The notes beneath the pieces were generated by a model. That model ran no database searches. It saw nothing but the letters and a program-made list of their open reading frames with translations, and was not told where the DNA came from. DNA of 64,000 nucleotides from a bacterium (GTDB lineage Bacteria > Patescibacteriota > Gracilibacteria > Peribacterales > Peribacteraceae). Shown one piece after another: positions 7,809 through 55,555 of this stretch (positions within the stretch are counted from its first letter, which is position 1; every line of letters begins with the position of its first letter). Location of the stretch: NCBI GenBank assembly GCA_027623015.1, contig JAQBVR010000003.1:2197-66196 (forward strand). The letters are read 5' to 3'. The translations under genes were made by a program, and so were the position numbers.

Positions 7809-7814
7809 AGCCTG

Positions 7815-20605: not shown

Positions 20606-20702
20606 GAGAGAATCCTTTCCTCCCCCCTAGGAGGAGTGGAGTGTCTGGTTACTACGCTTGGCCAGACGATGAGCATATCGTACCACTTGAGTAAATGCTG
20701 TA

Positions 20703-20740
20703 TATGAAAATGCCTCCGCTTGTGAAGGGGCGGAGGCATT
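20703..20740 (-). terminator. Rho-independent terminator after ORF 20772..21464
   Basis: On the minus strand, AATGCCTCCGC-N10-GCGGAGGCATT is followed by TTTTCATAT. Confidence 0.7.
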
Positions 20741-20771
20741 CTCTCTGACAGTCTTATGGCAGCAGTTTTCC

Positions 20772-21464: not shown

Positions 21465-21714
21465 GGACCGTGATGTGTAATGTGAAGTGGTAGCAACTTA
21501 TATTCTGTGAATACAAATAGCTACCACCTCTTTGCTGCCGAATCTGTCAAAGAGCGTTCTCTCTTTTACAAAGAAAGAGGGACAAATTATCGCGTTGTGT
21601 TTACATGTGGTCAAATACTTGAAAGGATAAAAGTTTTTAGAGAACGAATAATTATCCCTATGAGGATAGTAAAACTGTATTGACTCTTGGCTGTACGAAG
21701 CGCAAAATCCCCCT

Positions 21715-22026
21715 ATGGGTGTTGGAAATGTGAATAAATTATTTGGCGATTATGATAATCGTCACAAAATGCCAAAAAATCTTGGGGACAATCCAGTCTC
21801 TGGAGTGGAATCAGGTAAAGCAACAACCCTAGCTCTTCTCTTAATGAAAAATGGAGTTTATGTTAGCATGGCTGGCGCACTAGCTATTTCACAATCTTTA
21901 ACAGCGCAAGGAGTAGGCACTATCCGCAATAAGCCAGCGGATGAACTTGGTCGCAATGATCCATGTCCTTGTGGATGTGGCAAGAAGGTAAAGAAGTGCA
22001 AAGTGGACAGCGTTGATGCCGCATAG
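21715..22026 (+). CDS. SEC-C motif (SecA-type metal-binding) domain protein
   Basis: C-terminal NDPCPCGCGKKVKKC. Confidence 0.65.
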   Translation: MGVGNVNKLFGDYDNRHKMPKNLGDNPVSGVESGKATTLALLLMKNGVYVSMAGALAISQSLTAQGVGTIRNKPADELGRNDPCPCGCGKKVKKCKVDSVDAA

Positions 22027-29625: not shown

Positions 29626-29720
29626 CGGAATAGTATTGTAGACTTTGTTCACAGTACTGCAATTTTCTCCTAGCTCTTTTTGTGTTCTATGCTACGCTCC
29701 TTCTGACTTCTCCTCTTCCT

Positions 29721-37033: not shown

Positions 37034-37849
37034 CTACACAAGCTTCTTCTCGAATACAAAATCACACAATTCATCAAATATAGGTGGAGTTGATGCGACA
37101 ACGAGGAGTCCTCCACTAGGGTTTCCTGGCTCTTCCCATTCGTAGCGGTACTTTCCACCTGCTTCTTCCATCATCAAGCAACCTGGGGCTATGTCCCAGA
37201 GTCGAATACCACGGAAGAATGCACCATCGTTCCAGCCGAGGAGCATCTCACCCATCTCTTGCGCTGCACAGCCGTAGTTCTCTATAGAGCTTGCATAGGG
37301 CATGGAGGCATACCAAGCACCGTTCTCGTGCTCTACAGCACGACGCATGATGTTACAGGAGAGGACAGAGTCATTCATACTGACCGTCTTGCGAAGCTTT
37401 ACAGGCTTGTCGTTGATCGTTGCTCCACCACCTTTCACTCCTGTGAAGTGGTAGTTCATAAGAGGCATGATCATAACACCAGCTTGTAAGACACCATCTT
37501 GTTGGACTGCTACGCAGGTGCCGAAGTTTGGCTTGCCGTGGATGAAGTTGTTTGTACCGTCTAGAGGATCGATGATCCATTCATATGAGCTGTCGCTCGA
37601 ACCCAAGCTGTCTGCCCCTGTTTCCTCTGCGATGAATCGGTGGTCGGGGTAGGCGTTCTGGATGATCGCAATCATATCCTCCTGACACTTGGCATCTGTC
37701 TCTGTAACGAAGTCTGTCTCTGAAGACTTGGTTTGAATGCTCAGATCACCACCATTGGTAAAGACGTCATGATACTTTTCTACTTGTATTTCCGCAGCTC
37801 TTTTTGCCGCTGCTTCTGCGATGATGAGGAGATTGTGTGGGGTGGGCAT
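37034..37849 (-). CDS. Inositol monophosphatase family protein (SuhB-like)
   Basis: FIAEETG, WIIDPLDGTNNF, WDIAPG. Start taken at the internal ATG MPTPHNLL. Confidence 0.85.
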   Translation of the reverse strand: MPTPHNLLIIAEAAAKRAAEIQVEKYHDVFTNGGDLSIQTKSSETDFVTETDAKCQEDMIAIIQNAYPDHRFIAEETGADSLGSSDSSYEWIIDPLDGTNNFIHGKPNFGTCVAVQQDGVLQAGVMIMPLMNYHFTGVKGGGATINDKPVKLRKTVSMNDSVLSCNIMRRAVEHENGAWYASMPYASSIENYGCAAQEMGEMLLGWNDGAFFRGIRLWDIAPGCLMMEEAGGKYRYEWEEPGNPSGGLLVVASTPPIFDELCDFVFEKKLV

Positions 37850-37912
37850 TGATTGTAGAGTACAGGGCTTGGTGTTGGTTTGCATTGAATTGAAAAAGAA
37901 ATACATACCGTT

Positions 37913-38023
37913 TAGAAATAAGGGGAATAAGAGAAATAAAAGAATTTGGAAATATTGATATTACAAAAGTCATTGAAATCTCATGCAGAGAATTCCCTTA
38001 TTACACTTATTTCTCTTATTTCT
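37913..38023. repeat. Long purine-arm/pyrimidine-arm hairpin, second copy of the 12173 element
   Basis: AGAAATAAGGGGAATAAGAGAAATAAAAGAATTTGGAAAT ... TTCCCTTATTACACTTATTTCTCTTATTTCTT. Confidence 0.8.
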
Positions 38024-38057
38024 TGTACATTGAAGAATGACGGCTACCACTCCGTTT

Positions 38058-38759
38058 TTAAAGGTTCGGCAATTGGTATTCAAGAAGATTTTCTACAGCT
38101 GTTCTGTAGCTTGGTAATTGCCTCTCGACGATCTTCCAGTACGCTGCAGAGTGGTCTCCACGTTTGCGGTGTGCGAGCTCATGGACGATGACATAGTGCA
38201 GTAGGTAGTGAGGCACGAAGAGGAGTGCAGTGTTGATCATGATGGTTCCTCGTGGTGAGCAGCTACCCCATTGTGATGTTGCAAATGCAAAGCGAATCCT
38301 TGGGACATGCACACGATAGGTTTGGCGATTGATCTTATCGATGAGCATCGTGATCCGCGCATTTTCGCTTTGAGAAAGAAGTTTCCAGAGGAAGCGATGT
38401 AGAGATTCTCGCCGAGTCTTTGGCCCTACTGTAACAAGCCAACCTTTCCCCGTTTTCTCTGCTTTAAGCTTGTCTCCTGGCTGTAGGTTGAAGAGGTAAC
38501 TTTTTCCCGTTGCGAGAGTCACAAGCTCTTGTTGAGCACCATTCAGAAGTCTTGCGAAGGGATTGATGGTGATCTTGGCGTGGACCTCTTCGAGAAGTTG
38601 TTCAGTCATACGACTAAGAAGATCTTCGACGTGTTCTTGCTCCTCTGTTTTACTGAGATCTTTGGCTAGGCGAATCACGATAGTGTTGTTTGTATAGACG
38701 GCTCGTGAATGCTTGTTTGTTGTGTGCTCGACCCGGTGAGGAAAGTTGTCTGGAGTCAT
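38058..38759 (-). CDS. YgjP-like (DUF45/M48-related) metallopeptidase
   Basis: QWGSCSPRGTIMIN, YVIVHELAHRKRGDHSAAYW (HExxH). Confidence 0.8.
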   Translation of the reverse strand: MTPDNFPHRVEHTTNKHSRAVYTNNTIVIRLAKDLSKTEEQEHVEDLLSRMTEQLLEEVHAKITINPFARLLNGAQQELVTLATGKSYLFNLQPGDKLKAEKTGKGWLVTVGPKTRRESLHRFLWKLLSQSENARITMLIDKINRQTYRVHVPRIRFAFATSQWGSCSPRGTIMINTALLFVPHYLLHYVIVHELAHRKRGDHSAAYWKIVERQLPSYRTAVENLLEYQLPNL

Positions 38760-38891
38760 GTAGGCTGACGATCATACATCACTATGCAAGTCCTGTGGAC
38801 CCTGGTGCGAATGCATGTGTAAAGCGCCTTAAATAGCTATATATCGCGCTATAGTGCCAATCTATTCCACATCATAAATACATGTTTTGCG

Positions 38892-39716
38892 TTAGAACTC
38901 TTCGTCGGTCAAGACCTCTTTTTCAGAGGTATGAATTTTATGCGCCTCTCGAAGGATTGGTGAGCAGGTCTGAAGGTGTAGAAGGGTTTGACTAAACATG
39001 AAGTTGGATTCTTGGTATTCTTCTGTATCAATAACTTGACGAAGAAGTGCCTCTCCTTGCTCAAAGCAGAGCGATGCAGTGGAGACCTGAGCAAAGGTGT
39101 GGTCACTAATGGGGGTCGTCTGAACGAGAGACAGCATGCGGAACATGAGATGAGCTATCCAGGTTTGCATCCTATCTGCACGCATGTAGAGCCGTCCAAG
39201 GGCAGCAGGAACTCTGTAGAGGTCCCGTAGGTTTGCTTTGGCCTCTTCTGCCTCTTCTACGGAGCCGTAGACACCGCTTTCAAGACCGAAGATCACGGCA
39301 TCGATGGCAGTAAGAAGCTCACGTTGCTTTGTGATATTTGGCGCTCGGACAGTTTCAGTTATACCAGGGATAGTCTCGAAGTATTCCATCTGCCTTTGGA
39401 TGAACTCTCTCTGTAATACGAGCTGAGCTCGGTAGCAGCGCATTGTCGTCGAAAGTCTTGTATCTCTATTTGCCCTGCGCAAAGCGAGTCTGCACTCACC
39501 TCTGTGCTCCGCAAGGAGTATTTCGTGGTCTTTAGACAGATCTGCAAAAAGCCGCATACCTTGGCGAGTGTGTAGTGCTGCTGCTCGAAATCCTTCCGCA
39601 CGCTCCACTCGTTCTTCCCACAGGATATCCTGTTCCTCTGCTGCAGTATGTAGCTCGGCTTCCTGCGCATAGGCAGGGGTGGTAAATAGTCCAATGACAA
39701 TAATTAAGTTGATCAT
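38892..39716 (-). CDS. Hypothetical secreted alpha-helical protein
   Basis: MINLIIVIGLFTTPAYAQEA signal peptide. TACACT lies 8 nt upstream of the ATG; the track GTG start is at 39734. Confidence 0.6.
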   Translation of the reverse strand: MINLIIVIGLFTTPAYAQEAELHTAAEEQDILWEERVERAEGFRAAALHTRQGMRLFADLSKDHEILLAEHRGECRLALRRANRDTRLSTTMRCYRAQLVLQREFIQRQMEYFETIPGITETVRAPNITKQRELLTAIDAVIFGLESGVYGSVEEAEEAKANLRDLYRVPAALGRLYMRADRMQTWIAHLMFRMLSLVQTTPISDHTFAQVSTASLCFEQGEALLRQVIDTEEYQESNFMFSQTLLHLQTCSPILREAHKIHTSEKEVLTDEEF

Positions 39717-39787
39717 TGGAGGATAGTGTAACACGACTGATGAAAAGACCTAGAAGACCTAGAAGATTTGGAATAGTCCATTTTCCT

Positions 39788-40717
39788 TTAGACAGTTTTA
39801 GTCTTCAGTACATGCCCCTTGATCGTTTCTATGACGGTCTCCAGATCTTCGTTGACGAGGAAATGGTCAAAGAGCTCTGAGCGATTTGTGAAGAAGTCGA
39901 GGTCTTCTTCGGCATTGCGCATGCGGTCTGCGATGCTTTGTTCGTTGTCTCTACCACGAGTACGGAGTCTGCTGAGAAGCTGCGAGAGCATGGCGCGCTT
40001 ACTCTTGCCTGGAGGCAGGAGTCCACAAGAGAGTATGGACCGTCTGCTATAGTGGTTGCTGAGTTCTTGGAGGAGGTTTTGTTCGGTGATGACGACGGGG
40101 ATACTTTCATTTTTCCAGATCGCTTCTAGGTCTGTAGCGCGGTAGCCATACCATCTCTTCTCGTCTTTCGATGGAATCTGTGTTGCTGCGATGATCTCTT
40201 CGTCTTTGCGCATCTTTATGAAGGCTTCTTCTGTGACATAGGTGTACTCACCATCATCTCCGTCCTTTGGTTCTCTTGTTGTGACGATAGGACTAGCGGT
40301 TACGTAGTCGCTAAACATGGTCACCAGCGAACGGCTAATGGTAGATTTTCCGACACCAGATGGTCCTGTAAGAGCGAGGATGTAGCCTGGGAATTCTTTG
40401 AGAGTTTCCTGCTCTACGGGCTTTCCTACTAGGACTTCGTAGCCGACATCATATATGCGTAGCCCCTGAGCGGTTGTGCGAGTAAGACGCATACGAGGGC
40501 AGACCTGTAGGCCGATTTGTAGGTCTTGAGATGTACTGTGGATGAGTTGACCCATGGCTCGTGTGCCGTCTTCGAGTTCTAGTAGCCCTATAGTAAGAGG
40601 AGCTGAGCCGAAACCTTCTGCTGGGTGAGCGACAGTGGTGAACGATACGATGTTGCCTTTTTGCATCTTGCGATGTACTTCTTTCTGGTACCGAGAGGTG
40701 AAGGCTGGGCTTGTCAT
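39788..40717 (-). CDS. Fusion protein: DUF35-type OB-fold (thiolase/HMGCS scaffold-like) plus guanylate-kinase-like P-loop kinase domain
   Basis: The N-terminal region GNIVSFTTVAHPAEGFGSAPLTIGLLELEDGTRAMGQL...IGLQVCPRM looks OB-like. The C-terminal part has LTGPSGVGKST, VTTREPKDGDDGEYTYVTEEAF, WYGY, LPPGKSK...RLRTRGRDNEQSIADRMRNA and FLVNEDLE. The ATG overlaps the thiolase TGA (ATGA). Confidence 0.75.
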   Translation of the reverse strand: MTSPAFTSRYQKEVHRKMQKGNIVSFTTVAHPAEGFGSAPLTIGLLELEDGTRAMGQLIHSTSQDLQIGLQVCPRMRLTRTTAQGLRIYDVGYEVLVGKPVEQETLKEFPGYILALTGPSGVGKSTISRSLVTMFSDYVTASPIVTTREPKDGDDGEYTYVTEEAFIKMRKDEEIIAATQIPSKDEKRWYGYRATDLEAIWKNESIPVVITEQNLLQELSNHYSRRSILSCGLLPPGKSKRAMLSQLLSRLRTRGRDNEQSIADRMRNAEEDLDFFTNRSELFDHFLVNEDLETVIETIKGHVLKTKTV

Positions 40718-41826
40718 ACTGCAGTGTGTTCGAGGATGTGAATACCGCATGTGGCACAGGCTCCACCAAAGTTATGTGCAAGGCCATAGCGTTTTCCTGA
40801 TGCTTTGAGCTGTTTTCCTATATCTATAATCTGCTTCACACCTGTGGCAGCAACAGGATGGCCGCACGCTTTGAGTCCTCCACTCGCATTGATCGTCTGC
40901 TTTCCAGGATTTTCATAGAGCTTTACGCCAGTTCCTGGTGCTGCGTAGCCGAGGTCTTCGAGGTTGATGATCGCAGCGATAGAAAAGCAGTCGTGGATCT
41001 CGAGATGAGCTATGTCGTTTCGGTGGATTGCAGCTTCTGCAAATGCTTTGGCCGCTGCTTGTTTGGTTGCTTTAAATCCTGTGATCGACTCTCGTTGAGT
41101 GATACTGACAGTATCTGATGCTATTTGCGATGCTGCGATTTTTAGTGAGCTTTGGTGCTTTGTCGACAAAATACATGCAGCAGCACCATCGCTGATGGGA
41201 GAGCAGTCGAGCATACAGAGTGGCTCTGCTACTGTAGTGCTCGAAGTCACTGCCTCAGGACTCACTTCCATACGAAACTGTGCGAAGGGATTTGCCATGG
41301 CATTGCTGTGGTGTTTCGCACTAACTGCACTTAGACGCTCTCGACTGAGACTGTGTTCGTACATGTATCGGTTGGCTATAAGACCAAAGATACCTGGGAA
41401 TGTGATACCACTTGGGCTGTCGAGTTCACTGTCTGCCGCACCCATGAGACCAGAGGCGATAGCTCCAGTATCTGCATCGGTCATTTTCTCTACTCCTACG
41501 ACAAGCACGGTCTCTACTTTGCCACTTTCTAGCATACCACAGGCTGTATGCAGTGCCATGGCACCAGATGCACAGGCAGACTCTACGCGCAGTGCAGGTG
41601 GCTGGTGTGGCAAAAGGCTCGATGCCATAGCACCAAGGTGTGCTTGGTCACTTGTACGCTCAGCAAGCATGTTTGCAACGATAACAAGATCGATATCGAG
41701 TACGCTAATACCTGCATCTTTGATGGCAGAATCGATAGCGCTATCCATCAGTTCTCTTAAGCCCATATCCCAGTGTTCCCCGAAGGGAGTTTGGCCAGTT
41801 CCTGTGATGTAGATGTCAGTATTCAT
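40714..41826 (-). CDS. Acetyl-CoA acetyltransferase (archaeal-type thiolase)
   Basis: VESACASGAMAL (catalytic Cys), HDCFS, GHPVAATG, NFGGACATCGIHILE. Confidence 0.85.
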   Translation of the reverse strand: MNTDIYITGTGQTPFGEHWDMGLRELMDSAIDSAIKDAGISVLDIDLVIVANMLAERTSDQAHLGAMASSLLPHQPPALRVESACASGAMALHTACGMLESGKVETVLVVGVEKMTDADTGAIASGLMGAADSELDSPSGITFPGIFGLIANRYMYEHSLSRERLSAVSAKHHSNAMANPFAQFRMEVSPEAVTSSTTVAEPLCMLDCSPISDGAAACILSTKHQSSLKIAASQIASDTVSITQRESITGFKATKQAAAKAFAEAAIHRNDIAHLEIHDCFSIAAIINLEDLGYAAPGTGVKLYENPGKQTINASGGLKACGHPVAATGVKQIIDIGKQLKASGKRYGLAHNFGGACATCGIHILEHTAV

Positions 41827-41836: not shown

Positions 41837-42865
41837 TTACTGGTTACTGGTTATGCGTTCGCGGTAGTGGGCGTAGCTGAGGTATTCGGTTTCACGATTG
41901 TCGGAGGGCAGTGTAATGCCATCGCGGAGCATTGTCATGAGGAAGGCGTCTGAGCCAGCACCAGAACCATAGGAGATCATAAGGATGCTCTCATTCTTTT
42001 TCGCTTTCTGTAGAGCATGTACGAGTCCGATCATCGAGCACGCACTGTACGTATTGCCAATAGTTGGAACGATGAACCCTTCCTGCATTTGCTCTTTCGT
42101 AAATCCAAACTCTTTTGCCATCTTGCTTGGGAACTTTGCATTTGGCATGTGGAGAATGACGTGATGAATACTCGAGAGGTCACATCCAGAGACTTCTGTG
42201 ATTCCTTTGATTGCTTCACGAACATGATGGAAATAGGCAGGCTCTCCTGTAAACCTTCCTGCATGCTGTGGGTACCTATCGTGCGCACCTCTCCAGAAGT
42301 CTGGTGTGTCTGTAGTAAACGAAAGGGTTTTATCGATGCTACAGAGTGCGTTCTTTTCGGTACTTGGCCCTATCACGACTGCAGCAGCTCCAGCAGCAGC
42401 TGTGTACTCAAGCGCATCTCCAGGTGCTGCCTGCGCAGTGTCGGAGCCTATCGCAAGTCCGTAACGGATCTGCTTGGACCTCACAAAGCTATCGACGATT
42501 TGCATCCCCGCTGTACCTGCTTTGCAGGCAAACTCTAAGTCTGCACAATGGCAGTATGGGTCGACTTTGAGGGCTGCAGCTACCATGCCACTTGTGGGTT
42601 TGACTGCGTAAGGATGGCTTTCAGAACCAACAAATACAGCCGAGATCTGTGAAGACTTGATGTTTGCCGTATCGATAGCCTGCTTTCCTGCTTCATACGC
42701 CATGGTAAATGTATCCTCTCCATCTCCAGGAACCGTCTTTTCATTTACACCAAGGCCCTTTTCTACGGATACAGGGTCTTTTTTCCAGTGACCCGCTATA
42801 GTAGCCGTTTTGATGCGGTGAGATGGGAGGTACATGCCGAAGCTGATAATGGCAGAATTGTTCAC
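41837..42865 (-). CDS. Hydroxymethylglutaryl-CoA synthase (archaeal type)
   Basis: GSESHPYAVKP, EFACKAGTAGM (catalytic Cys), HMPNAKFP, GNTYSAC. GTG start chosen; the track start 42916 lies inside the repeat hairpin. Confidence 0.8.
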   Translation of the reverse strand: MNNSAIISFGMYLPSHRIKTATIAGHWKKDPVSVEKGLGVNEKTVPGDGEDTFTMAYEAGKQAIDTANIKSSQISAVFVGSESHPYAVKPTSGMVAAALKVDPYCHCADLEFACKAGTAGMQIVDSFVRSKQIRYGLAIGSDTAQAAPGDALEYTAAAGAAAVVIGPSTEKNALCSIDKTLSFTTDTPDFWRGAHDRYPQHAGRFTGEPAYFHHVREAIKGITEVSGCDLSSIHHVILHMPNAKFPSKMAKEFGFTKEQMQEGFIVPTIGNTYSACSMIGLVHALQKAKKNESILMISYGSGAGSDAFLMTMLRDGITLPSDNRETEYLSYAHYRERITSNQ

Positions 42866-42884
42866 TGTAATGATACTACTGGTT

Positions 42885-42971
42885 GAAGATGCAAGATGGC
42901 AAGATACAAGATGCAAAATATTTGCCTAAAAACCTCTTTGGACCTTGATATCTTGTATCTTGTATCTTTTT
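42885..42971. repeat. CAAGAT(A/G) heptamer hairpin between HMGR and HMGCS
   Basis: GAAGATG CAAGATG GCAAGATA CAAGATG ... GATATCTT GTATCTT GTATCTT. Confidence 0.8.
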
Positions 42972-42988: not shown

Positions 42989-44134
42989 CTAGCGTCCAAG
43001 CGTGCTATGAGCAGTTGCCAGGTGCCCCGCAGCCTGCGCAGCGAGGAGAGACACCTCTCCAGCAAGAACTGCTGCACCGATGCTTTCTGCCAAGTGTTTC
43101 TTGTCACCTCCTTGTGAGAGGAGTTCGAGGCATTGCCTCTGTGCAGGGAGGTCTGTGCCACCTCCTCGGAGTCCTACCAAGATGGCAGGGCAACGGACGG
43201 AGATCTTTAGGCCATCCTCTGTAGCTTCTACGGTAGTGTCTGCGAGTGAACCTTCTACGACGTGAGCAGCATCTTGACCTGTAGCAAGGTAGAGAGCGGC
43301 GATGACGTTTGCTGCGTGCATATTTGCTCCAAGTGCACCTGCAATTTTCGAACCTTCTATTAACTTGGCTCGTGCAACATTCATCATTGCCTCGTGGTCA
43401 GATTTGAGAATGTCTGTTATCACGGTAGTGGGGAGAGTGGCAGTCGCAGTGACTTCGTAACCACGTCCTTTTTCATGCGTTCTTTTACTTGGTTTTTTAT
43501 CGCTATCGACGTTTGCAGCGATCGTTATCAGTCTGCAGTTTTCATCATTTTCAACGATCCAATTTCCTACAGCTTCGGCAGCGATCGTCACCATGTTCAT
43601 GCCCATTGCCTCATCGGTATCGACGTTTATTGTGAGGAAGATGTGCTCGTTTGTTTCATCGATGTCGAAGTGCAAAACTTTAAGATGATTGCTTGTTTTT
43701 TCTGCGACTACTTTCCATGTTTCTTCGTTTTTTTCTAACAACTCTTTTACACGTTTTGTGTTTGTAGTTTTTATTGCAATCGACCGAGAGATACCATGAT
43801 GTATAGAAGACGTGTGTACACCTTTTGCACTATTTAATGCTTTGCAACCGCGGTTCACACTCGCAACAAGTGCGCCTTCCGTTGTAGCAAGCGGTAGGTG
43901 TACGTACATGTTTTTCTGTGAAGAAAAATACACGTGCAGTGGTCCCGCGTGTCCGACAGGGATGAGCATAGACCCGAACATGTTTTCACAGTTTTTTTCA
44001 TCACTGTGTCCTATGGTGGACGGTCGTTGTTCGAGCAAAGACAGGTCGCAGTCGCACTCATCTTCGATGCGCTTGCGACGCTCGGCGATCCTTTCTTTTG
44101 GGCTGCCTAGATTGGGTAAATTGCGGAGATCCAT
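42989..44134 (-). CDS. Hydroxymethylglutaryl-CoA reductase, class I
   Basis: ENMFGSMLIPVGHAGPL, TTEGALVASVNRGCKA, DAMGMNMV, GLRGGGT. Confidence 0.9.
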   Translation of the reverse strand: MDLRNLPNLGSPKERIAERRKRIEDECDCDLSLLEQRPSTIGHSDEKNCENMFGSMLIPVGHAGPLHVYFSSQKNMYVHLPLATTEGALVASVNRGCKALNSAKGVHTSSIHHGISRSIAIKTTNTKRVKELLEKNEETWKVVAEKTSNHLKVLHFDIDETNEHIFLTINVDTDEAMGMNMVTIAAEAVGNWIVENDENCRLITIAANVDSDKKPSKRTHEKGRGYEVTATATLPTTVITDILKSDHEAMMNVARAKLIEGSKIAGALGANMHAANVIAALYLATGQDAAHVVEGSLADTTVEATEDGLKISVRCPAILVGLRGGGTDLPAQRQCLELLSQGGDKKHLAESIGAAVLAGEVSLLAAQAAGHLATAHSTLGR

Positions 44135-44227: not shown

Positions 44228-45241
44228 CTAAGCTTTTTCTATCATGGAGGTTCCAGGTCCGACTGTCGTTTCAAATACGGTGCAGCCCTGTTGTGCGTTT
44301 GCGAAAGATAGTATGTCTGCGCGTGCATCTGGCGTACAGAAGAGGTGGACTGTGGGGCCTGCATCCATGGTATAGAGCACTTCGAGGTGCTTGCTAGATC
44401 GCAATTCTTTTACCTCTCCGAGGATGCGGTGTGTCTCGTTACTCAGGTACTTGAGAGGAGTAGAGCTGGTTTCCATGACATGGTGCATATCCATACAGTC
44501 TTCCTCTGAAACAACTTGACGCTTCTCGAAGTCTTTGTTCAAGATCGCACTTATACATTCACTCTGCCTGCGTGGCATCGCTTCGACACGCTGAGTCCAG
44601 TCTGGACTCGTCTGTGCGATGGCATGACCCTCTGTTGAGCCGACGGCTTTCTCTTCTTGGCTAGGTACGATGATGATGTCATAAAGAGGCCAGTGACTTT
44701 CGTCTGCTATCTGTACTCCCTTGGCAGTGTCTATGTCGTTACCGTCTCCTGCTTCGATGGCGCTAAACCCTCCGAATATACTTCGTGTTGCAGACCCTGA
44801 CCCCAGCCGAGCAATGACACTGACTTGCTCGTCATTGAGTTCCGTACCTCCAAAGCTGCCATAGCACTTTGCAATGCAACTAAAGACTGCAGCAGAGGAT
44901 GCAAGTCCGATACTTGGTGGGATGCCTGACTCTATAGTGATGGCGATGTTTTCGGGAATCATTTCCTCTATTCCGAGGAAGTGGAGATAGTGATTTGTTA
45001 GTTCTCGGTGTTTCATAAATCTTGCGATGTCTTTTTCTTCTAGGTTCTTTTCAGTTCCATCTGCAAGAAATGATCGTAGTGAAAAGTTCTCTGAATCTTC
45101 CACGGTGATATCTACACTCGGAGTATCTATCGTCATGCTGAGAGAGTCATAGGCTGGAAGGCGTAGATCGTTGTTACGGTTACCCCAATATTTGATGAGG
45201 GCAATGTTCGGCGTTGAGCGAGCTGTGACTTTCATGGTCAT
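44228..45241 (-). CDS. mvaD: Diphosphomevalonate decarboxylase family (GHMP); substrate not resolved
   Basis: NIALIKYWGNRN, GLASSAA, GSGSATRS. The start overlaps the mvk stop (TAATG). Confidence 0.85.
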   Translation of the reverse strand: MTMKVTARSTPNIALIKYWGNRNNDLRLPAYDSLSMTIDTPSVDITVEDSENFSLRSFLADGTEKNLEEKDIARFMKHRELTNHYLHFLGIEEMIPENIAITIESGIPPSIGLASSAAVFSCIAKCYGSFGGTELNDEQVSVIARLGSGSATRSIFGGFSAIEAGDGNDIDTAKGVQIADESHWPLYDIIIVPSQEEKAVGSTEGHAIAQTSPDWTQRVEAMPRRQSECISAILNKDFEKRQVVSEEDCMDMHHVMETSSTPLKYLSNETHRILGEVKELRSSKHLEVLYTMDAGPTVHLFCTPDARADILSFANAQQGCTVFETTVGPGTSMIEKA

Positions 45242-46128
45242 TATGATTTGAAGATTTCAAAAGGGGATTCGTCGATTGTCTTCTGCAGAATTGCGGGGTC
45301 AGGATGGAGAGCAAGTACCATGCCTCCACCACCGGTGTGACTCCCTGCGCCGATGATCTTAGCAGCTCCTCCATCTTGAACAATTTTTTTGATCAGTTCT
45401 TGCACTGCAAATGGGACTATCCCAATCCTACACTGGGCTTCGTGGTGTTTACGTACGATGCTAATTATGTCGGGATTTGGCTGATTCCACTTCTCTGTGC
45501 ACTGTCCGATAGTTTCCAAGGCTTCAGACATAGCAGGGTCTTTGTTTTGCATTGCCGTATCGATACTTGAGATGAGTTCAGGCGTGGATTCGTTTGGGGT
45601 TCCTGTATCGACCAATACGAAATTGACCTCTGGTAGGTCTACGAATTCTGGAGCTGACGTTTTGCGAAAGAGTACAGGACGGTTGTGCCAGATGACGGCA
45701 AAGTCTAGGCCACTGTGCCCTTGGTTTACTTCATCTTCGATCGCCATTGCTACCTCTTCACAGTCTGGGCCAAGTAAACATCGTGTGACTGCTATCACCA
45801 ATGCAGTAGAAGAGCCCATGCCTTTACCAAGAGGAAGGTGATTTACAATCTCTAGTTTTCCGAAAAGGTGGTTGTTTTGCTGATTGCAGAGAGAAATGAT
45901 CTGCTCAAGGTACGTATCCCATTCCTGTCCTCCTGCTATCCCGTGCCAGGAGATTTCTAGGTCTGACCTACTAAGGTCTTCTGTAAAAGTTGCTTCAATT
46001 CCAATATTTGCAGGAATAGCGATACCAGGGTAGCCATATACTACTGCGTACTCTCCACTGAGGATGATCTTGCCGGTGGCTTTTTCATGATTAACCACCA
46101 AACCGTCTGGTACGCTTTGCAAATGCAC
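45241..46128 (-). CDS. mvk: Mevalonate kinase (GHMP)
   Basis: KIILSGEYAVVYGYPGIAIP, LPLGKGMGSSTA, GAGSHTGGGG. Alternative starts are GTG 46098 and TTG 46101. Confidence 0.85.
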   Translation of the reverse strand: MHLQSVPDGLVVNHEKATGKIILSGEYAVVYGYPGIAIPANIGIEATFTEDLSRSDLEISWHGIAGGQEWDTYLEQIISLCNQQNNHLFGKLEIVNHLPLGKGMGSSTALVIAVTRCLLGPDCEEVAMAIEDEVNQGHSGLDFAVIWHNRPVLFRKTSAPEFVDLPEVNFVLVDTGTPNESTPELISSIDTAMQNKDPAMSEALETIGQCTEKWNQPNPDIISIVRKHHEAQCRIGIVPFAVQELIKKIVQDGGAAKIIGAGSHTGGGGMVLALHPDPAILQKTIDESPFEIFKS

Positions 46129-46786
46129 TCACTGCAGTATCGAGATCTTCGGTCGTGAAGTCGGGGAAGAACTTGTCTACGAAGTCCCATTCGCTATAGG
46201 CAGACTGCCACAAAAAGAAGTTGCTTGTGCGGTGCTCTCCTGATGTACGGATGATGAGGTCGAGGTTTGGCAGATTTGGTTGATCGAGATGCTTTTGTAC
46301 TTCTTCATCAGTGAATTGCATATTTGTTGTGAGCTGTGAGTTGTGAGTTGTGAGCTTGCTCATGGCACGAAGCAGCTCGTCTTTGCCACCGTAGTCGAGA
46401 GCGAGGTGAATGGTCGCTTTTGCATTATCTTTTGTTTCGGATTCGATCTCTTCGATGAGTATAGCAAGTGAAGAGGGTATGCGATCTTTGCGACCAGAGT
46501 GGAGAAAGCGAATGTTATTTTCTGCAAATGATGCACGTTCATCGTTGAGATACTGCTCAAGCATATCCATGAGCATGCCTATTTCTTTCTCATCGCGTTT
46601 CCAGTTTTCGGTCGAGAAGCACCAGATAGTGAGGATGCTCACTCGAGGATCTACTCTGCACCACTCGGTGATGGATCGAAAGATATTGATAGCCTTACGA
46701 TGCCCTTCCCAAGGATCTAAACTCTGATTCTTCGCCCATCGGCGATTGCCGTCTGGGATGATAGCTATGTGGAGGGGGGTATCCAT
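46091..46786 (-). CDS. uppS: Undecaprenyl (cis-prenyl) diphosphate synthase
   Basis: HIAIIPDGNRRWA, FSTENWKR, IRTSGEHRTSNFFLWQ. Confidence 0.92.
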   Translation of the reverse strand: MDTPLHIAIIPDGNRRWAKNQSLDPWEGHRKAINIFRSITEWCRVDPRVSILTIWCFSTENWKRDEKEIGMLMDMLEQYLNDERASFAENNIRFLHSGRKDRIPSSLAILIEEIESETKDNAKATIHLALDYGGKDELLRAMSKLTTHNSQLTTNMQFTDEEVQKHLDQPNLPNLDLIIRTSGEHRTSNFFLWQSAYSEWDFVDKFFPDFTTEDLDTAVSAFAKRTRRFGG

Positions 46787-46792: not shown

Positions 46793-47338
46793 TCAGGGAG
46801 TAGGGCGTAGGTAGTCGGGAGTGGATAGGTTAAGAATTTGGTGTAGTCCTAACTGGAACCATATAGCATAATCTTCTCTCTTCGATGCCATATCTGCAAT
46901 AAGCGTATCTACATGTCTCCATTCCAGCGATTCCACTTCATCTGGATCTGGCTTCATTTCGATATCGCCATCGACTTGTCCTGTAAGAAGTGTAACGAAC
47001 TCATGCTCAGATCCTGCTCTATTTGGCGATTCTTCTTGATATACCAGTGTACTATGCACTGAGAGATCGGGGCTTTTTATGCCACATTCTTCCATGACAC
47101 GCTTTGGTGCAACTTCTTCCTCTGTCTGCCCTACTCGTGGGTGACTACAACAGGTATTTGCGAGAATACGAGGCCAGAGTGGCTTGCTTGCACTGCGACG
47201 CTGCACAAGAAGTTCACGCTTGCCATCGCGAAAGAGATATACAGAAAAAGCTCTATGGAGTTTCCCTGGGCTCTTGTGCGCATCTTCCCACGACGCTTCT
47301 CCATTCTGGTCGCCTGCAGTATCACAGAGAATTAACAT
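46793..47338 (-). CDS. idi: Isopentenyl-diphosphate delta-isomerase, type 1 (Nudix)
   Basis: LHRAFSVYLF, WPRILANTCCSHP, EHEF. ATG start 6 nt after CATAAT; the track GTG start is at 47353. Confidence 0.85.
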   Translation of the reverse strand: MLILCDTAGDQNGEASWEDAHKSPGKLHRAFSVYLFRDGKRELLVQRRSASKPLWPRILANTCCSHPRVGQTEEEVAPKRVMEECGIKSPDLSVHSTLVYQEESPNRAGSEHEFVTLLTGQVDGDIEMKPDPDEVESLEWRHVDTLIADMASKREDYAIWFQLGLHQILNLSTPDYLRPTP

Positions 47339-47415
47339 GAGGTAATTATGCACACGTATTGGCTCTTTTGTAAGAATCTAGTATTCTTTTTCTGCAATTA
47401 TTCCTCATTTCACCT

Positions 47416-48522
47416 ATGACAGACACAACGAATCCCTCAGATTTTGTCTCCGACTTTGTTTCGAAAGGTACTGGTGACCTTTCTATTATGAATGATGTGT
47501 ACCTTGGGAACTCAGTTTTAGATTGGGTGACTGCCATTGTTGTGTTTGTATTGGCTCTCATAGCTTTGAACATCTTCAAGCGTGTGATCATTTGTCATAT
47601 GAAAAAGCTTGCATCGAAAACGAAGGGGCATCTCGATGATGCTGTTATTGAGTATCTAGAAAACATCAGTAGTGGCTTCTACAAAATGATGGCCATCTAT
47701 GCCGCTGTGCAGGATCTATCCTTACCATCAATTGTGCAATTAGTTCTTCGTGCTGCATTTCTTCTTATGGTTGTTTCGGAAGTCATCAAGATCATTCAGA
47801 GTGTCATACAGTATGCTCTTGCTAAGAAGACTGGTACGAATACTGCAGAAGACAAAGCGATCTCTGGCGCATTGCTCCTTATTCTCCGTATAGCGCTGTG
47901 GATGATGGGTATTTTGCTTGTACTTTCAAATCTTGGTTTCAATATCAATTCCCTTATTGCTAGCTTAGGTATTGGAGGTTTGGCTATTTCATTGGCGCTT
48001 CAGCCAGTGCTTACAGACATCTTCAGTTCGTTTTCTATTGCTTTGGATAAGCCGTTTGAGGAAGGTGACTTTATCGTGTGTGGGGAATTTAAAGGAGACG
48101 TGAAGAAAATAGGACTCAAGACCACACGCCTGATAGCTTTGCAGGGAGAAGAATTGGTTATCTCGAATACTGAGCTTACCAATGCACGTGTACAGAACTT
48201 CAAAAAAATGAAGAAGCGACGTGTCGTATTTAGTATTGGTGTGAAGTATGGAACGTCGCCTGATCAGATTCGTGCGATTCAAGCTATGATCCAAAAGACT
48301 ATTGATGAACATGAGCATACGGAGTTCAATCGCGCGCATTTCTATGAGTTTGGAGAATCCAATCTTCATTTCGAAATCGTCTACTTTATGCTTTCGGGTG
48401 ACTATGCTGAATATATGGATGCCCAGCAGTCTATTAATCTTTCGATCATGGAAGGCCTAGAAAAGATTGGTGTCGAGATGGCTTTCCCAACGAGAACTGT
48501 GCACATGGTCAAAGATGTTTAA
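47416..48522 (+). CDS. Mechanosensitive ion channel (MscS family)
   Basis: TM helices followed by GDFIVCGEFKGDVKKIGLKTTRLIALQGEELVISNTELTNARVQNF. Confidence 0.85.
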   Translation: MTDTTNPSDFVSDFVSKGTGDLSIMNDVYLGNSVLDWVTAIVVFVLALIALNIFKRVIICHMKKLASKTKGHLDDAVIEYLENISSGFYKMMAIYAAVQDLSLPSIVQLVLRAAFLLMVVSEVIKIIQSVIQYALAKKTGTNTAEDKAISGALLLILRIALWMMGILLVLSNLGFNINSLIASLGIGGLAISLALQPVLTDIFSSFSIALDKPFEEGDFIVCGEFKGDVKKIGLKTTRLIALQGEELVISNTELTNARVQNFKKMKKRRVVFSIGVKYGTSPDQIRAIQAMIQKTIDEHEHTEFNRAHFYEFGESNLHFEIVYFMLSGDYAEYMDAQQSINLSIMEGLEKIGVEMAFPTRTVHMVKDV

Positions 48523-50152
48523 GTTACTCGTTCCTCGTTACTTGCCTGCCCCTCGTAGCCTTGGCGTAGTAGGGTTCCTCGTTGTCATCTTGGTAGCTGG
48601 GGCTGTGTATTACCCCGTCCTTGGCTTTGATTTTATCAATTTAGATGATCCACAGCTGGTGTATCAAAACTACCTCGTACGTAGCTTCTCGCCGAAGATC
48701 TTTACGACGTATGACCCCGAACTATATATACCTCTCACCTTATTGACGTATCAGATCGAGCATGCGTTTATTGGCTTACAGCCACTGTATTATCATTTAG
48801 TTAATCTGATCATTCATGGAGCAAATGCCATGTTACTTCTTTGTATTCTTAGGAAGTTGCTTCGCACGGACTCGTGGCTCTTACCGCTTCTTGGAGCATT
48901 GATCTTTGTCGTCCATCCACTTCACACAGAGACAGTCGTGTGGGTAAGTGCACGGAAAGATCTACTCTCTGGATTCTTTTTCTTGTTTGCATTACTCAGT
49001 TATCTTCACAACAAGAAGAAGGCGGGTATCTTGTTTTTTGTACTAGCACTACTCTCGAAGGTTACGGCCATTACATTGATCCCTGTTCTATTTCTGGTAG
49101 ATTTCTTACAGGGCAAACCTCTCACGCGTGCATCTATCACATCCAAATTGCCGTACATGGCTCTTGGTACTGTCTTTTCTGGCATCGCACTTGGTGGGAA
49201 AACTGAGAATCTCTCTGCACTGAGCATTGCGGAATTTGTATTACTTGCGTGCAAGAGTGTCATTTTCTATCTACAGAAGCTCGTAGTCCCCACGGACCTT
49301 TCGATCTTGTACCCGTGGACGGAGCCGATAGTCCTTTTGTCATTTGACTTCATGTTACCTGTACTCTTGTTTTTGGTTGTTGTGTTGATGCTTGTCTTTA
49401 CCTGGCAACATAAGAAAGACGTGTTCTTTGGTCTTGCATTCTTTTTGGTAACATTGGCTCCGAGTCTGTTGACCTTTTCCAAGGCAGGAGATGTATACTT
49501 CGCGTCCGATAGGTATGCGTACATCCCTTCGATTGGGATCATCTACTTGCTACTGATCTGGATCGCTCAGTCCCGATTGCGTTCCAATACCGTTATGACA
49601 TTGGGCGTGATCTTGCTTATAACGTTTGGAGTAGCATCACGCAACCACTCACAGGTATGGCGTAATAGTGAAGTATTGTTTTTAGATGTTCTCACGAAAT
49701 ATCCTCAAGCACATATATCAGAGGAAAACTTAGGTCATCTCTACTTGATGGATGGAAGAACTGAAGAGGCGGTTGCACATCTTGAGAGGGCACTTACTCT
49801 CAAAAGTACCTCGTTTGCTGCACACAATAATCTTGGGTTTATCCGCATGATGCAGGGGCAATATAGGACTGGTCTTGCACACTTTCAGGCATCTATAGAG
49901 TTGAACAGTGCTTACGCTCCTGCACACGTAAATGTTGGAGTTTGGCATGCAAAGCAGGGGGATTACGCTATAGCAGAACAGGCGCTCAAAAATGCTATCG
50001 AACTCGACCCATACATGGCACAGGCGTACTTCAACCTAGCTGGTGTGTACCTCAAGCGTGGAGATGATGTCAGTGCGAAGGCATTTTATGCTAAAACACT
50101 AGAGCTTGAACCAGGTCACCCAGATGCTATTCGACAACTACAAACATGGTAA
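48515..50152 (+). CDS. TMTC-like GT-C membrane protein with C-terminal TPR repeats (DUF1736-type)
   Basis: FINLDDPQLVYQN, VHPLHTETVVWVSARKDLLSGFFF, then four or more TPR units. The start overlaps the mscS end. Confidence 0.7.
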   Translation: MFKLLVPRYLPAPRSLGVVGFLVVILVAGAVYYPVLGFDFINLDDPQLVYQNYLVRSFSPKIFTTYDPELYIPLTLLTYQIEHAFIGLQPLYYHLVNLIIHGANAMLLLCILRKLLRTDSWLLPLLGALIFVVHPLHTETVVWVSARKDLLSGFFFLFALLSYLHNKKKAGILFFVLALLSKVTAITLIPVLFLVDFLQGKPLTRASITSKLPYMALGTVFSGIALGGKTENLSALSIAEFVLLACKSVIFYLQKLVVPTDLSILYPWTEPIVLLSFDFMLPVLLFLVVVLMLVFTWQHKKDVFFGLAFFLVTLAPSLLTFSKAGDVYFASDRYAYIPSIGIIYLLLIWIAQSRLRSNTVMTLGVILLITFGVASRNHSQVWRNSEVLFLDVLTKYPQAHISEENLGHLYLMDGRTEEAVAHLERALTLKSTSFAAHNNLGFIRMMQGQYRTGLAHFQASIELNSAYAPAHVNVGVWHAKQGDYAIAEQALKNAIELDPYMAQAYFNLAGVYLKRGDDVSAKAFYAKTLELEPGHPDAIRQLQTW

Positions 50153-51789
50153 ATTTCCTTCTCCAGTATCGGTTGCCACTCATTGCGATCGTTCTAATAA
50201 CAGTGGGAGTGTATCTACCAGTCTTTGGTTTTGATTTTGTGAATTTCGACGATCCTCAGTTGGTATATGAGAACCCTTTCATACAGAATTTCTCCCTGAA
50301 GATCTTTACGACATATGACCCTGAGCTCTACATCCCTCTTACATTGCTTTCGTATCAGGTAGAGCATGCAATATTTGGGTTAAATCCAGCAGCTTTTCAT
50401 CTGACAAATGTGCTCCTTCATATAGCAAATGCCGTGATGGTTTTCATGGTTTTGCTGAAGCTAAAGCGCAATTCTTCTAGTTATCTTCTGCCATTTATTG
50501 GAGCATTACTCTTTGCAGTTCATCCTCTTCATACAGAGGCTGTAGTGTGGGTGAGTGCGCGAAAGGATCTACTTTCTGGCTTTTTCTTTTTACTGTCACT
50601 GCTGCTGTATATGCATAAAAGGCGATTAATTTTCTGGAGTATTGGCGCTTTTGTATTGGCACTACTCTCCAAAGTAACAGCAATCACTCTCATACCAGTT
50701 CTTCTTCTCGTAGATTGGCGAGATACGAAGAGGTTTACGGTGCGGTCTGTCATCGAAAAATGGCCGTATATCTTCTTAGGAATCGTATTTGCGATCATTG
50801 CCTACATTGGTAAGACGTCAAACCTCACAGCGTTTTCTGCAGTGGAGTTTGCATTACTTGCTTGCAAAAGTATTGCGTTCTACGTTCAGAAGCTCTTTGT
50901 GCCTTCAGACCTATACGTGCTGTATCTCTGGAAAGGATTTATTTACCTACTGTCACCGAGCATCGCTCTGACAGTTCTTCTCTGTATCGCGATCGGCATT
51001 ACCCTTTGGATAAGTTATAGGCGCAGCAGTGACGTGCTCTTTGGACTAGCTTTCTTTTGTATAACGCTTGCTCCAAGTCTTTTGACATTTTCCAAAGCGG
51101 GACATATTTACTTCGCATCCGATCGCTATGCGTATATCCCATCTATCGGAATCATCTTCCTTTTGGTGCTCCTTCTTTCACGCTGTGTCAACTCTCGTCG
51201 TTGTCAGATAATTACTGCGGTTAGTGGCTTGTGTGTCGTCAGTGTGTTTGCTGTTATGGCACGTGCACAATCTGCAATTTGGCATGATAGCCCAACGTTG
51301 TATCAGCATGTATTGGCGCATGACCCTGAGTCGTATATCGCATTAAATAATTTGGGTGTGCTCATGCTTGAAAACCATCAGTATGAAGATGCTCTTTGGC
51401 ACCTTGAACGTGCAGCAAGTGTAAAAGAAGACTATACCTCTGCTATGCTCAACATGGGAGTAGCGCACTATTATTTAGGAAATCTAGAAGAAGCTGAAGA
51501 GGTAACTGCACGTGTGACAGTACTTCGCCCAAGTATGCTTAAGGGTTGGTTCAGTCTGGGGTGGATCTATGAACAAGAAGGGAAGTACGAAGAAGCGTTA
51601 CAAGCGTTTGCTACTGCTTTAGAAATCGATGATACAGATCCTCAAGTGCACTGGCACATTGGCCATGTGTACGGCAAACAAGGGAAGTACAAAGCTGGTT
51701 TAGATGCGTATAGGAAGGCGATGGCACTTGACCCAGCATATGAGAAGCAGCTTGAGACTGTAGATGCGTTGATGGTTCCTGGTTCCTAG
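50146..51789 (+). CDS. TMTC-like GT-C membrane protein with C-terminal TPR repeats, paralogue
   Basis: FVNFDDPQLVYEN, VHPLHTEAVVWVSARKDLLSGFFF, TPR units. Overlaps the upstream paralogue by 7 nt. Confidence 0.7.
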   Translation: MVNFLLQYRLPLIAIVLITVGVYLPVFGFDFVNFDDPQLVYENPFIQNFSLKIFTTYDPELYIPLTLLSYQVEHAIFGLNPAAFHLTNVLLHIANAVMVFMVLLKLKRNSSSYLLPFIGALLFAVHPLHTEAVVWVSARKDLLSGFFFLLSLLLYMHKRRLIFWSIGAFVLALLSKVTAITLIPVLLLVDWRDTKRFTVRSVIEKWPYIFLGIVFAIIAYIGKTSNLTAFSAVEFALLACKSIAFYVQKLFVPSDLYVLYLWKGFIYLLSPSIALTVLLCIAIGITLWISYRRSSDVLFGLAFFCITLAPSLLTFSKAGHIYFASDRYAYIPSIGIIFLLVLLLSRCVNSRRCQIITAVSGLCVVSVFAVMARAQSAIWHDSPTLYQHVLAHDPESYIALNNLGVLMLENHQYEDALWHLERAASVKEDYTSAMLNMGVAHYYLGNLEEAEEVTARVTVLRPSMLKGWFSLGWIYEQEGKYEEALQAFATALEIDDTDPQVHWHIGHVYGKQGKYKAGLDAYRKAMALDPAYEKQLETVDALMVPGS

Positions 51790-55473: not shown

Positions 55474-55555
55474 GCATATAGTATTACAGGAAGTGTGTGG
55501 TCTGAGAATTATTTGCAATTGCTATACGGACTATAATTCGCGATAATAGATCGCG

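Follow-up and report, generated by a model that had tools for sequence, protein, structure and literature searches.

A guanylate-kinase-fold domain fused to a DUF35-type OB domain at the end of a Peribacteraceae mevalonate operon: a candidate isopentenyl phosphate kinase

Which enzyme supplies the second kinase of the lower mevalonate pathway in the Peribacteraceae? The question is raised by a stretch of 64,000 nucleotides from contig JAQBVR010000003.1 of assembly GCA_027623015.1 (positions 2,197 to 66,196 of the forward strand; here called the window, and numbered from its first letter), which holds an operon that encodes a mevalonate kinase (MVK)-like enzyme and a decarboxylase and whose last gene, at 39788-40717, joins an OB-fold domain of the DUF35 type to a P-loop kinase with the fold of guanylate kinase (Gmk). 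In five complete Peribacteria genomes the pathway was described as 'near-complete', with the step after mevalonate-5-phosphate unassigned and the decarboxylase read as the diphosphate type (PMC4736985). The initial annotation of the window had suggested that the kinase domain may be the missing phosphomevalonate kinase (PMK) or, if the decarboxylase acts on the monophosphate, an isopentenyl phosphate kinase (IPK). Our reading of the sequences leans, by a small balance, towards an active P-loop kinase that is a candidate IPK fused to a DUF35 scaffold. The broader statement, that the domain is a lower-mevalonate-pathway kinase of one kind or the other, is the safer one and we regard it as probable; the narrower one, that it is specifically an IPK, we hold tentatively.

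The conservation of individual residues is counted below over 235 family members, i.e. 180 fusions and 55 standalone kinases. The fusion gene and its parts are as follows.

39788..40717, − strand: fusion gene, DUF35-type OB domain, linker and Gmk-fold kinase, 309 amino acids (aa) plus stop (translation, PF01796 and PF00625)
40418..40717, − strand: OB-fold domain, aa 1-100, N-terminal helix and five strands, no Cys4 zinc ribbon (domain model, Foldseek, Cys count)
39791..40387, − strand: P-loop kinase domain of Gmk fold, aa 111-309 (Foldseek TM-score 0.88; TIGR03263 79.9 bits)
40340..40366, − strand: P-loop GPSGVGKST, aa 118-126 (K124 kept in 177/180 fusions and 53/55 standalone members)
40235..40282, − strand: acceptor-phosphate motif TTREPKDGDDGEYTYV, aa 146-161 (R148, K151 and Y158 correspond to Gmk R41, R44 and Y53)
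40139..40177, − strand: rebuilt hairpin IPSKDEKRWYGYR, aa 181-193 (family-specific P182, E186, R188 and Y192; Y190 corresponds to Gmk Y81)
39911..39970, − strand: lid helix RLRTRGRDNEQSIADRMRNA with catalytic arginines, aa 250-269 (alignment to the Gmk lid arginines)

The open reading frame (ORF), its coordinates and every motif quoted in the initial annotation were found as it described them: besides the P-loop, TTREPKDGDDGEYTYV and the lid RLRTRGRDNEQSIADRMRNA at the residues listed above, KRWYGYRA lies at aa 187-194, VITEQN at 209-214 and FLVNEDLE at 286-293. The start codon (ATG 40717) does share the sequence ATGA with the stop of the upstream thiolase gene. An alternative in-frame ATG at 40750 gives a longer ORF, and 40717 is the likely start because homologues begin at the MxxTP position. 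Both halves of the protein match Pfam models above the gathering thresholds: OB_ChsH2_C (PF01796) scores 33.5 bits over aa 20-72, where 27.1 is required, and Guanylate_kin (PF00625) scores 56.4 bits over aa 115-301. The full-length AlphaFold model has a mean pLDDT of 89.1, falling below 50 only at linker residues 102-105. Full-length homologues with both domains occur in at least 120 clusters (90% identity) at E < 1e-100, which places the two-domain architecture far beyond chance. In public databases the protein is annotated as 'OB-fold domain-containing protein', 'hypothetical protein' or 'guanylate kinase', and a limited literature search found no publication joining DUF35, guanylate kinase and the mevalonate pathway.

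The C-terminal 200 residues or so form the P-loop kinase of Gmk architecture that had been predicted for them, as both the PF00625 match and the Foldseek superposition on yeast Gmk with GMP (1GKY; TM-score 0.88, target-normalised; root-mean-square deviation (rmsd) 2.1 Å) indicate. The Gmk equivalog cut-offs are missed by a wide margin (TIGR03263, 79.9 against 160.45 bits; NF011324, 49.7 against 318). To see where the domain departs from Gmk we aligned 72 family members with mouse Gmk, whose numbering is used here, and with 87 canonical Gmks. The four residues that bind the phosphate of GMP (mouse R41, R44, Y53 and Y81) are kept as R148, K151, Y158 and Y190. Catalytic and acceptor-phosphate residues are retained in at least 174 of the 180 fusions, and this holds also for the lid residues R250, R254, R256 and R265. 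The pair of residues that recognises guanine is lost throughout: in 72/72 aligned family members Ser37 has become Ile (or Leu/Met) and Glu72 has become Ala, Ser or Thr, these being I144, just upstream of TTREPKDGDDGEYTYV, and A177, just upstream of IPSKDEKRWYGYR, in the window protein. Canonical Gmks have Ser37 in 75/87 and Glu72 in 76/87, and at positions 83, 101 and 103 mostly Thr, Asp/Glu and Asp. Thr83 to Tyr (Y192), Asp101 to Ile or Val and Asp103 to Glu are likewise found in 72/72. The guanine-binding region is thus rebuilt across the whole family, as had been proposed for this one protein.

The rebuilding extends to the shape of the acceptor site. A hairpin longer than that of Gmk bears the new invariant residues P182, E186, R188 and Y192, and the acceptor pocket is more hydrophobic (Ile, Ala, Tyr, Ile/Val, Trp, Leu); an invariant Arg188/Glu212 pair also lines this hydrophobic pocket. 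Pocket composition alone does not choose between isopentenyl phosphate and mevalonate-5-phosphate. Fused and standalone members show the same residue pattern, and a common substrate is therefore probable. Taken together, the kinase domain looks like an active enzyme that would phosphorylate a phosphomonoester other than GMP.

We searched 1.84 billion cluster representatives exhaustively with the kinase domain alone as the query and obtained 18 of them at E < 1e-30 (126-271 bits); among the matches listed, proteins of 180-230 aa with canonical Gmk residues scored only about 52-63 bits. When a family hidden Markov model (HMM) and a canonical one were applied to the proteins collected in this analysis, the 235 members split from 146 canonical-type matches by more than 40 bits; 116 of these 146 have standalone length, and one full-length protein was ambiguous. 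By these profile scores the kinase is a distinct small family, cleanly separated from canonical Gmks. Other searches were less productive. A scan of genome contigs, for which one fusion protein served as the query, yielded one true relative (L001; L and P numbers denote loci and protein clusters from other genomes and metagenomes) and one unrelated Gmk, and a metagenome scan by alignment with a generic P-loop pattern yielded mostly canonical Gmks and three fusions (L014-L016). Apparent OB-Gmk fusions in L068, L069, L075 and L077 (matches to 'aa 21-304') were rejected: translation of L075 showed tblastn read-through from an upstream gene into an ordinary gmk, and the matches in L068, L069 and L077 are near-identical to this artefact. 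A canonical Peregrinibacteria gmk was sought among the best canonical matches, and ciliate and Mycoplasma sequences emerged; one canonical-match cluster, P0161, was found on long contigs and looks low-GC.

The N-terminal domain ties the protein to the upper part of the pathway. Modelled separately, aa 1-105 reach a pLDDT of 89.7; residues 4-17 form a helix, and the rest folds into a barrel of five strands. The top fold match of this model in the PDB is 6esq_F (E 3.6e-6, rmsd 1.9 Å over 83 columns), i.e. the DUF35 subunit of the thiolase/HMG-CoA synthase (HMGCS) complex of M. thermolithotrophicus, and its top 16 fold matches are all DUF35 proteins, including PhlB, MucC, benzoylsuccinyl-CoA thiolase and ChsH2. 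In DUF35 proteins a rubredoxin-like zinc ribbon normally sits before the OB fold, and in the solved complexes the DUF35 subunit bridges thiolase and HMGCS (PMC12960953). The family sequence profile matches 6esq_E at E 1.4e-5 over residues 48-122 only, and aa 1-105 contain a single Cys (C73) and no Cys4 zinc ribbon. As the match to 6esq_E begins only at residue 48 and only one Cys is present, the ribbon is missing. Pfam, profile and fold comparisons thus agree with the earlier description of this region as the OB half of a DUF35 protein without its ribbon, and it models as such when searched on its own.

The genes that precede the fusion define the pathway in which it would act. From 47353 down to 39788 they are tightly packed, all on the − strand, in the order isopentenyl diphosphate (IPP) isomerase (IDI), cis-prenyltransferase (UPPS), MVK, decarboxylase, HMG-CoA reductase (HMGR), HMGCS, thiolase and fusion.

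46793..47353, − strand: type 1 IPP isomerase (Nudix) (NF002995 132.3 bits, cut-off 127)
46091..46786, − strand: cis-prenyltransferase (UPPS) (PF01255 232 bits; TIGR00055 216 bits, above cut-off)
45241..46128, − strand: divergent mevalonate-kinase-like GHMP kinase (TIGR00549 103.7 bits, below the cut-off of 163)
44228..45241, − strand: GHMP decarboxylase with phosphomevalonate decarboxylase (PMD) signature (best PDB match 6n0x)
42989..44134, − strand: class I HMGR (PF00368 315 bits; TIGR00533 312.7 bits)
41837..42916, − strand: archaeal-type HMGCS (NF003274 421.7 bits and TIGR00748 383.9 bits, both above their cut-offs)
40714..41826, − strand: archaeal-type acetoacetyl-CoA thiolase (NF004720 371.9 bits; Thiolase_N and Thiolase_C in Pfam)

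The true start of the HMGCS probably lies about 20 codons inside the listed ORF, the model matches beginning at aa 21-22, and the thiolase also scores 330 bits on NF053570 (M. thermolithotrophicus type). Simple scans for promoter and terminator signals of the operon found none above background. Downstream of the fusion (37034-39734, −) the genes encode a hypothetical protein that is secreted, a YgjP-like metallopeptidase and a member of the inositol-monophosphatase (IMPase) family, and further on come Maf and TrpRS; the YgjP-like, IMPase, Maf and TrpRS genes recur in other Peregrinibacteria loci at variable distance, with different genes directly after the fusion, and the operon therefore appears to end with the fusion.

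Pfam and NCBIfam bear out the initial claim that just two GHMP enzymes are encoded in the operon. We considered the divergent GHMP kinase as a PMK and set this aside: its PDB matches are to mevalonate kinases only, none to PMK. Nor did the Pfam scans of all other ORFs of the window reveal a GHMP-type PMK, an AA_kinase-type IPK or a second Guanylate_kin domain, in keeping with what had been noted before for PMK and IPK. One kinase is thus wanting in the window, and which one depends on the decarboxylase. This had been assumed to be a diphosphomevalonate decarboxylase (DMD), an assumption that the comparison speaks against. Its best PDB match is the PMD of Anaerolinea thermophila (6n0x, 164.8 bits), 39 bits better than the best DMD (126.1). 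The key residues are Asn21 (45179-45181), His206 (44624-44626) and the catalytic Asp293 (44363-44365). Wild-type 6n0x also has Asn/His at the two specificity positions, and 6n0z, a second Anaerolinea sequence in the PDB and presumably the engineered enzyme, differs from it at exactly these two positions (Asn to Lys and His to Met); Lys/Met is found in every DMD aligned (Arabidopsis, human, mouse, Enterococcus and Staphylococcus). In the literature 6n0x is described as PMD with mevalonate-5-phosphate bound, and Thomas et al. turned PMD into DMD specificity through mutagenesis (PMC9254496). By these residues the window decarboxylase is most likely of the phosphomevalonate (monophosphate) type, and the same Asn/His pair occurs in the decarboxylases of the fusion operons L001, L003, L005 and L015. 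Given the PMD signature and a GHMP kinase that matches only MVK, the likeliest unfilled step is the phosphorylation of isopentenyl phosphate and not that of mevalonate-5-phosphate. The published 'near-complete' verdict would then be explained by the decarboxylase having been taken there as the diphosphate type.

The arrangement is not peculiar to this contig. Named fusion clusters belong to Candidatus Peregrinibacteria, Peribacteria or Peribacteraceae, with one fusion labelled Kaiserbacteria in a later search. The same eight genes stand in the same order in L001, L003, L005 and L015 (54-64% identity), and the fusion adjoins archaeal-type thiolase and HMGCS genes in the window and in L001, L003, L005, L012, L015 and L016. 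Annotation of the gene calls with Pfam found no extra kinase in the flanks (±10 kb) of L003 and L005. The survey of relatives that the initial annotation had called for thus finds fusion and operon conserved together across Peregrinibacteria.

Catalytic or acceptor residues are missing in six fusion clusters, in all of which the OB domain and the fold as a whole survive. Three of them have another residue in place of the P-loop Lys (K to T in P0126; K to R in P0136 and P0140), P0130 and P0276 are without R148, Y158 and lid arginines, and P0128 is without R148, Y158 and R250; the kinase domain of P0126 is still 53% identical to that of the window. Since such pseudokinase copies keep the fold and the OB domain, the domain would have a non-catalytic role too, and their occurrence in some Peregrinibacteria would mean that a separate Gmk exists in those cells. 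L012 is the only catalytically dead fusion for which the whole operon can be read. This locus has gained an inverted cassette (3840-6565), adjoining the resident divergent MVK-like gene, that consists of a canonical MVK (TIGR00549 194 bits) and a second decarboxylase, the latter even closer to the Anaerolinea PMD (262 bits). L016 (141-2319) has the same cassette together with a remodelled acceptor hairpin in its fusion, and the contig ends before the position of the resident MVK-like gene. The cassette decarboxylases of L012 and L016 carry Arg/His at the two specificity positions. In one full operon (L012) and one partial operon (L016), therefore, the catalytic integrity of the kinase domain is tied to the make-up of the lower pathway.

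Homologues of the kinase domain also occur on their own, and their surroundings bear on the substrate. Standalone kinases are translationally coupled to a gene for a divergent His_Phos_1 protein in four loci.

L009:8615-10642: standalone kinase and divergent His_Phos_1 gene
L094:4193-6187: standalone kinase and divergent His_Phos_1 gene
L097:8655-10639: standalone kinase and divergent His_Phos_1 gene
L010:2710-3929: standalone kinase and divergent His_Phos_1 gene

The kinase start and the His_Phos_1 stop overlap by 4 bp in L094 and L010, and in three of the four loci the kinase follows UPPS. The order in L009, L094 and L097 is phosphoglycerate mutase, UPPS, His_Phos_1, kinase, UDP-GlcNAc 2-epimerase and a Wzy-like gene, the last of which falls outside the L094 contig, as this is short; a WecG/TagA-like gene also belongs to this cluster. 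Another arrangement is seen in L096, where the kinase is divergent from UPPS and a gene with a lycopene-cyclase domain adjoins. An OB extension of the L096 gene was rejected as spurious, as it contains a stop codon. What seems to be a short remnant of the final OB strand and of the linker is still present there, which suggests descent from a fusion, and a crude neighbour-joining tree places some standalone forms at the base of the fusions and others within them. No mevalonate genes were found within 10 kb of the standalone kinases of L009, L094, L097 and L096. UPPS consumes IPP. Genomes of the candidate phyla radiation (CPR) that are without most mevalonate genes retain a classical IPK (PMC6107057). 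Because of the UPPS adjacency and of the IPK kept in mevalonate-poor CPR, the standalone contexts fit an IPK better than a PMK.

Two further occurrences lie outside this pattern. A standalone member at L011:10001-10675 (also L007), about 51-52% identical to the window kinase domain, is annotated in genomes assembled from metagenomes and assigned to Candidatus Kentron, a gammaproteobacterial ciliate symbiont. Genes of a type II secretion system (T2SS), fis and purH share its contig; the kinase gene either left the CPR by horizontal transfer or was binned wrongly. L095 (952-2001; 10001-10648) is a contig of 71% GC that encodes a Por_Secre_tail protein and P0145, a remote relative of the kinase family that stands between it and canonical Gmk; 8 kb from P0145 lies a gene for a PMD-like decarboxylase whose two specificity residues are Cys/His.

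These observations can be assembled into a proposed mechanism. The OB domain, its ribbon lost, would dock the protein on the thiolase/HMGCS assembly, as homology and gene order suggest, so that the enzymes which open and close the pathway may be united in one assembly, with the kinase tethered to the complex that initiates the pathway. The P-loop and lid would bind ATP, while R148, K151, Y158, Y190 and the lid arginines would hold the phosphate of the acceptor, guanine no longer being read; the gamma-phosphate would then be passed to the acceptor's phosphate, with a diphosphate as the product. Both the PMD signature and the linkage to UPPS point to isopentenyl phosphate as the most likely acceptor, with mevalonate-5-phosphate as the second choice. 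The predicted route runs from mevalonate via MVK to mevalonate-5-phosphate, via PMD to isopentenyl phosphate and from there to IPP for IDI and UPPS. In other CPR-like bacteria a free-standing kinase beside UPPS may convert salvaged isopentenyl phosphate to IPP for the cell-wall carrier lipid in cells without a mevalonate pathway. More tentatively still, a P-loop IPK derived from guanylate kinase may constitute an unrecognised third evolutionary route to IPP, welded to a scaffold in Peregrinibacteria and free beside UPPS elsewhere.

How do other readings of the kinase domain compare with this candidate IPK? It could instead be a PMK, with a decarboxylase that uses mevalonate-5-diphosphate despite its PMD-like residues. 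A nucleoside monophosphate (NMP) kinase fold at the PMK step has a generally known precedent in the animal enzyme. A PMK would fill the same hole in the pathway with the same conservation of the operon, the NCBIfam DMD model is just passed by the decarboxylase (179.3 against a cut-off of 171.35), the published reading of Peribacteria assumed a diphosphate decarboxylase (PMC4736985), and the invariant Arg188 could, together with E212, T211 and Y192, accommodate an acceptor that has a carboxylate and a hydroxyl. However, the decarboxylase is nearer to the Anaerolinea PMD than to any DMD and has Asn/His, not Lys/Met; the standalone homologues, one of them in a gammaproteobacterial metagenome-assembled genome (MAG), would have no substrate unless the pathway is encoded elsewhere; and a sequence match to animal-type PMK is absent. 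We consider a PMK unlikely, if the least unlikely of the alternatives. The missing-kinase idea of the initial annotation thus stands as far as a lower-pathway kinase is concerned, which is the best supported outcome, and of the two options that it offered PMK has become the less likely because the decarboxylase is PMD-like. The least probable alternative is that the domain is the divergent guanylate kinase of the lineage, fused by accident or for regulation, with the second pathway kinase encoded elsewhere. Its equivalog score is half the cut-off, the guanine-reading pair is replaced in every aligned member, the family is small and cleanly apart from canonical Gmks, the dead copies imply another Gmk in some Peregrinibacteria, and both the conserved place of the fusion in the mevalonate operon (at least 120 clusters) and the recurrence of the UPPS adjacency in independent arrangements would be left over, although the fold and all catalytic and phosphate-binding residues are present, family members are annotated as guanylate kinase by the JGI, and the 64 kb hold no other gmk. 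The best evidence for a Gmk is that standalone forms lie among housekeeping genes, with guaA (GMP synthase) two genes downstream on the same strand in L009, L010 and L097, as fits a nucleotide kinase.

Between these two in probability, and likewise unlikely, is a domain that either acts on another phosphorylated substrate (e.g. dimethylallyl phosphate, a longer prenyl phosphate or an intermediate related to CoA) or functions mainly as a nucleotide-binding module that gives the thiolase/HMGCS complex structure or regulation. No specific alternative substrate is indicated, the second kinase is the only unfilled step of the conserved operon, and the retention of every catalytic residue in at least 174 of 180 fusions argues for catalysis. 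A module is what the pseudokinases would lead one to expect, since their fold and OB domain are intact and P0126 is still 53% identical over the kinase domain; and UPPS, the conserved partner of the standalone forms, also takes an allylic prenyl diphosphate primer. Besides the proximity of guaA, several observations weigh against an IPK fused to a DUF35 scaffold. The invariant polar residues R188, E186, E212, T211 and Y192 suit an acceptor with a carboxylate and a hydroxyl, e.g. mevalonate-5-phosphate, at least equally well. The Asn/His signature derives from one characterised PMD and its engineered mutant, and the correlation between pseudokinase and cassette from one full operon and one partial. 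The cassette decarboxylase is also PMD-like, which leaves the phosphorylation of isopentenyl phosphate in those cells unexplained, and the relative placement of the two domains is uncertain in the full-length model (pTM 0.63).

Elsewhere in the window, tandem genes at 968-2017 and 2018-3244 (+) encode proteins with DUF1246 and DUF1297, which we take to be of the PurP type, the archaeal ATP-grasp FAICAR synthetase of purine synthesis; these duplicated genes are a further archaeal-type enzyme in this CPR window beside the thiolase and HMGCS. Two tandem paralogous membrane proteins of about 550 aa, each with many N-terminal transmembrane segments and with C-terminal TPR repeats, are encoded at 48467-50152 and 50146-51789 (+) and adjoin a gene for an MscS-type channel that is divergent from the mevalonate operon. 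Proteins with SLH domains, presumably at the cell surface, are encoded at 54379-55518 (−) and 60927-62984 (−), one of them ending in a cupredoxin-like domain after a proline-rich linker, and match the cell-envelope emphasis reported for Peribacteria. A 901-aa protein with an ATPase domain of the TrwB/TraD coupling-protein type (type IV secretion system (T4SS)-like) lies directly after hrcA (16331-19036, +). The ORFs at 7797-10139 (+, 780 aa) and 27865-29652 (−, 595 aa) and three smaller ones at 19722-22026 had no Pfam match at E ≤ 1e-4.

If the domain is an IPK as we propose, the hole in the 'near-complete' mevalonate pathway of Peribacteria (PMC4736985) would be filled, the pathway would be reassigned to the MVK-PMD-IPK (Chloroflexi/haloarchaeal) type, a new and unrelated fold would be added to the enzymes that make IPP, and the fusion would be the first of a lower-pathway enzyme to an upper-pathway channelling scaffold. 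The proposal bears on the way in which archaea, CPR and other bacteria came to differ in their mevalonate pathways, and on the source of IPP for undecaprenyl phosphate in reduced symbionts. The candidate protein is small and soluble.

Compared with known systems, the fusion resembles each of its relatives in part. Its OB fold is alike, by profile and structure, to that of the DUF35 subunit of the archaeal thiolase/HMGCS complex (Methanothermococcus thermolithotrophicus, 6ESQ/6ET9) and to PhlB and MucC, and its gene likewise directly follows those of an archaeal-type HMGCS and thiolase; unlike the archaeal subunit it has no zinc ribbon and carries a 200-aa C-terminal kinase domain, the assembly here being predicted from homology and gene order. 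With guanylate kinase (EC 2.7.4.8) it has in common the fold, the P-loop, the lid arginines and the four acceptor-phosphate residues, whereas the guanine-reading Ser/Glu are replaced, the hairpin is longer and the gene context is that of isoprenoids and not of nucleotides. Animal PMK is a P-loop enzyme of the NMP-kinase fold that stands in for a GHMP kinase of the lower mevalonate pathway. It is thus a precedent for such a fold in this part of the pathway, but the decarboxylase here argues for a different substrate than that of animal PMK (PF04275). The fusion has no match to a PMK family model (GHMP ERG8 or PF04275) in Pfam, NCBIfam or the PDB, and homology to animal PMK or to PhnN was rejected after only weak P-loop similarity was found.

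The proposed reaction, and the position after MVK and PMD, would be those of the classical IPK (EC 2.7.4.26) of archaea, Chloroflexi and some CPR. Classical IPK also occurs in CPR without the rest of the pathway (PMC6107057), a situation that the standalone kinases may resemble. The folds are unrelated, AA_kinase (PF00696) being absent from the fusion, so that the kinase would be an analogue of classical IPK and not a member of its family. The modified pathway of haloarchaea and Chloroflexi (MVK, PMD and IPK) is matched here by an MVK-like kinase and a decarboxylase like that of Anaerolinea, with the same two residues; it differs in that the third enzyme is not a classical IPK and in that the candidate kinase is fused to the scaffold of an archaeal three-protein upper complex. 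The type of pathway is already known from Chloroflexi and haloarchaea, and within it the kinase would be a functional analogue of IPK or PMK.

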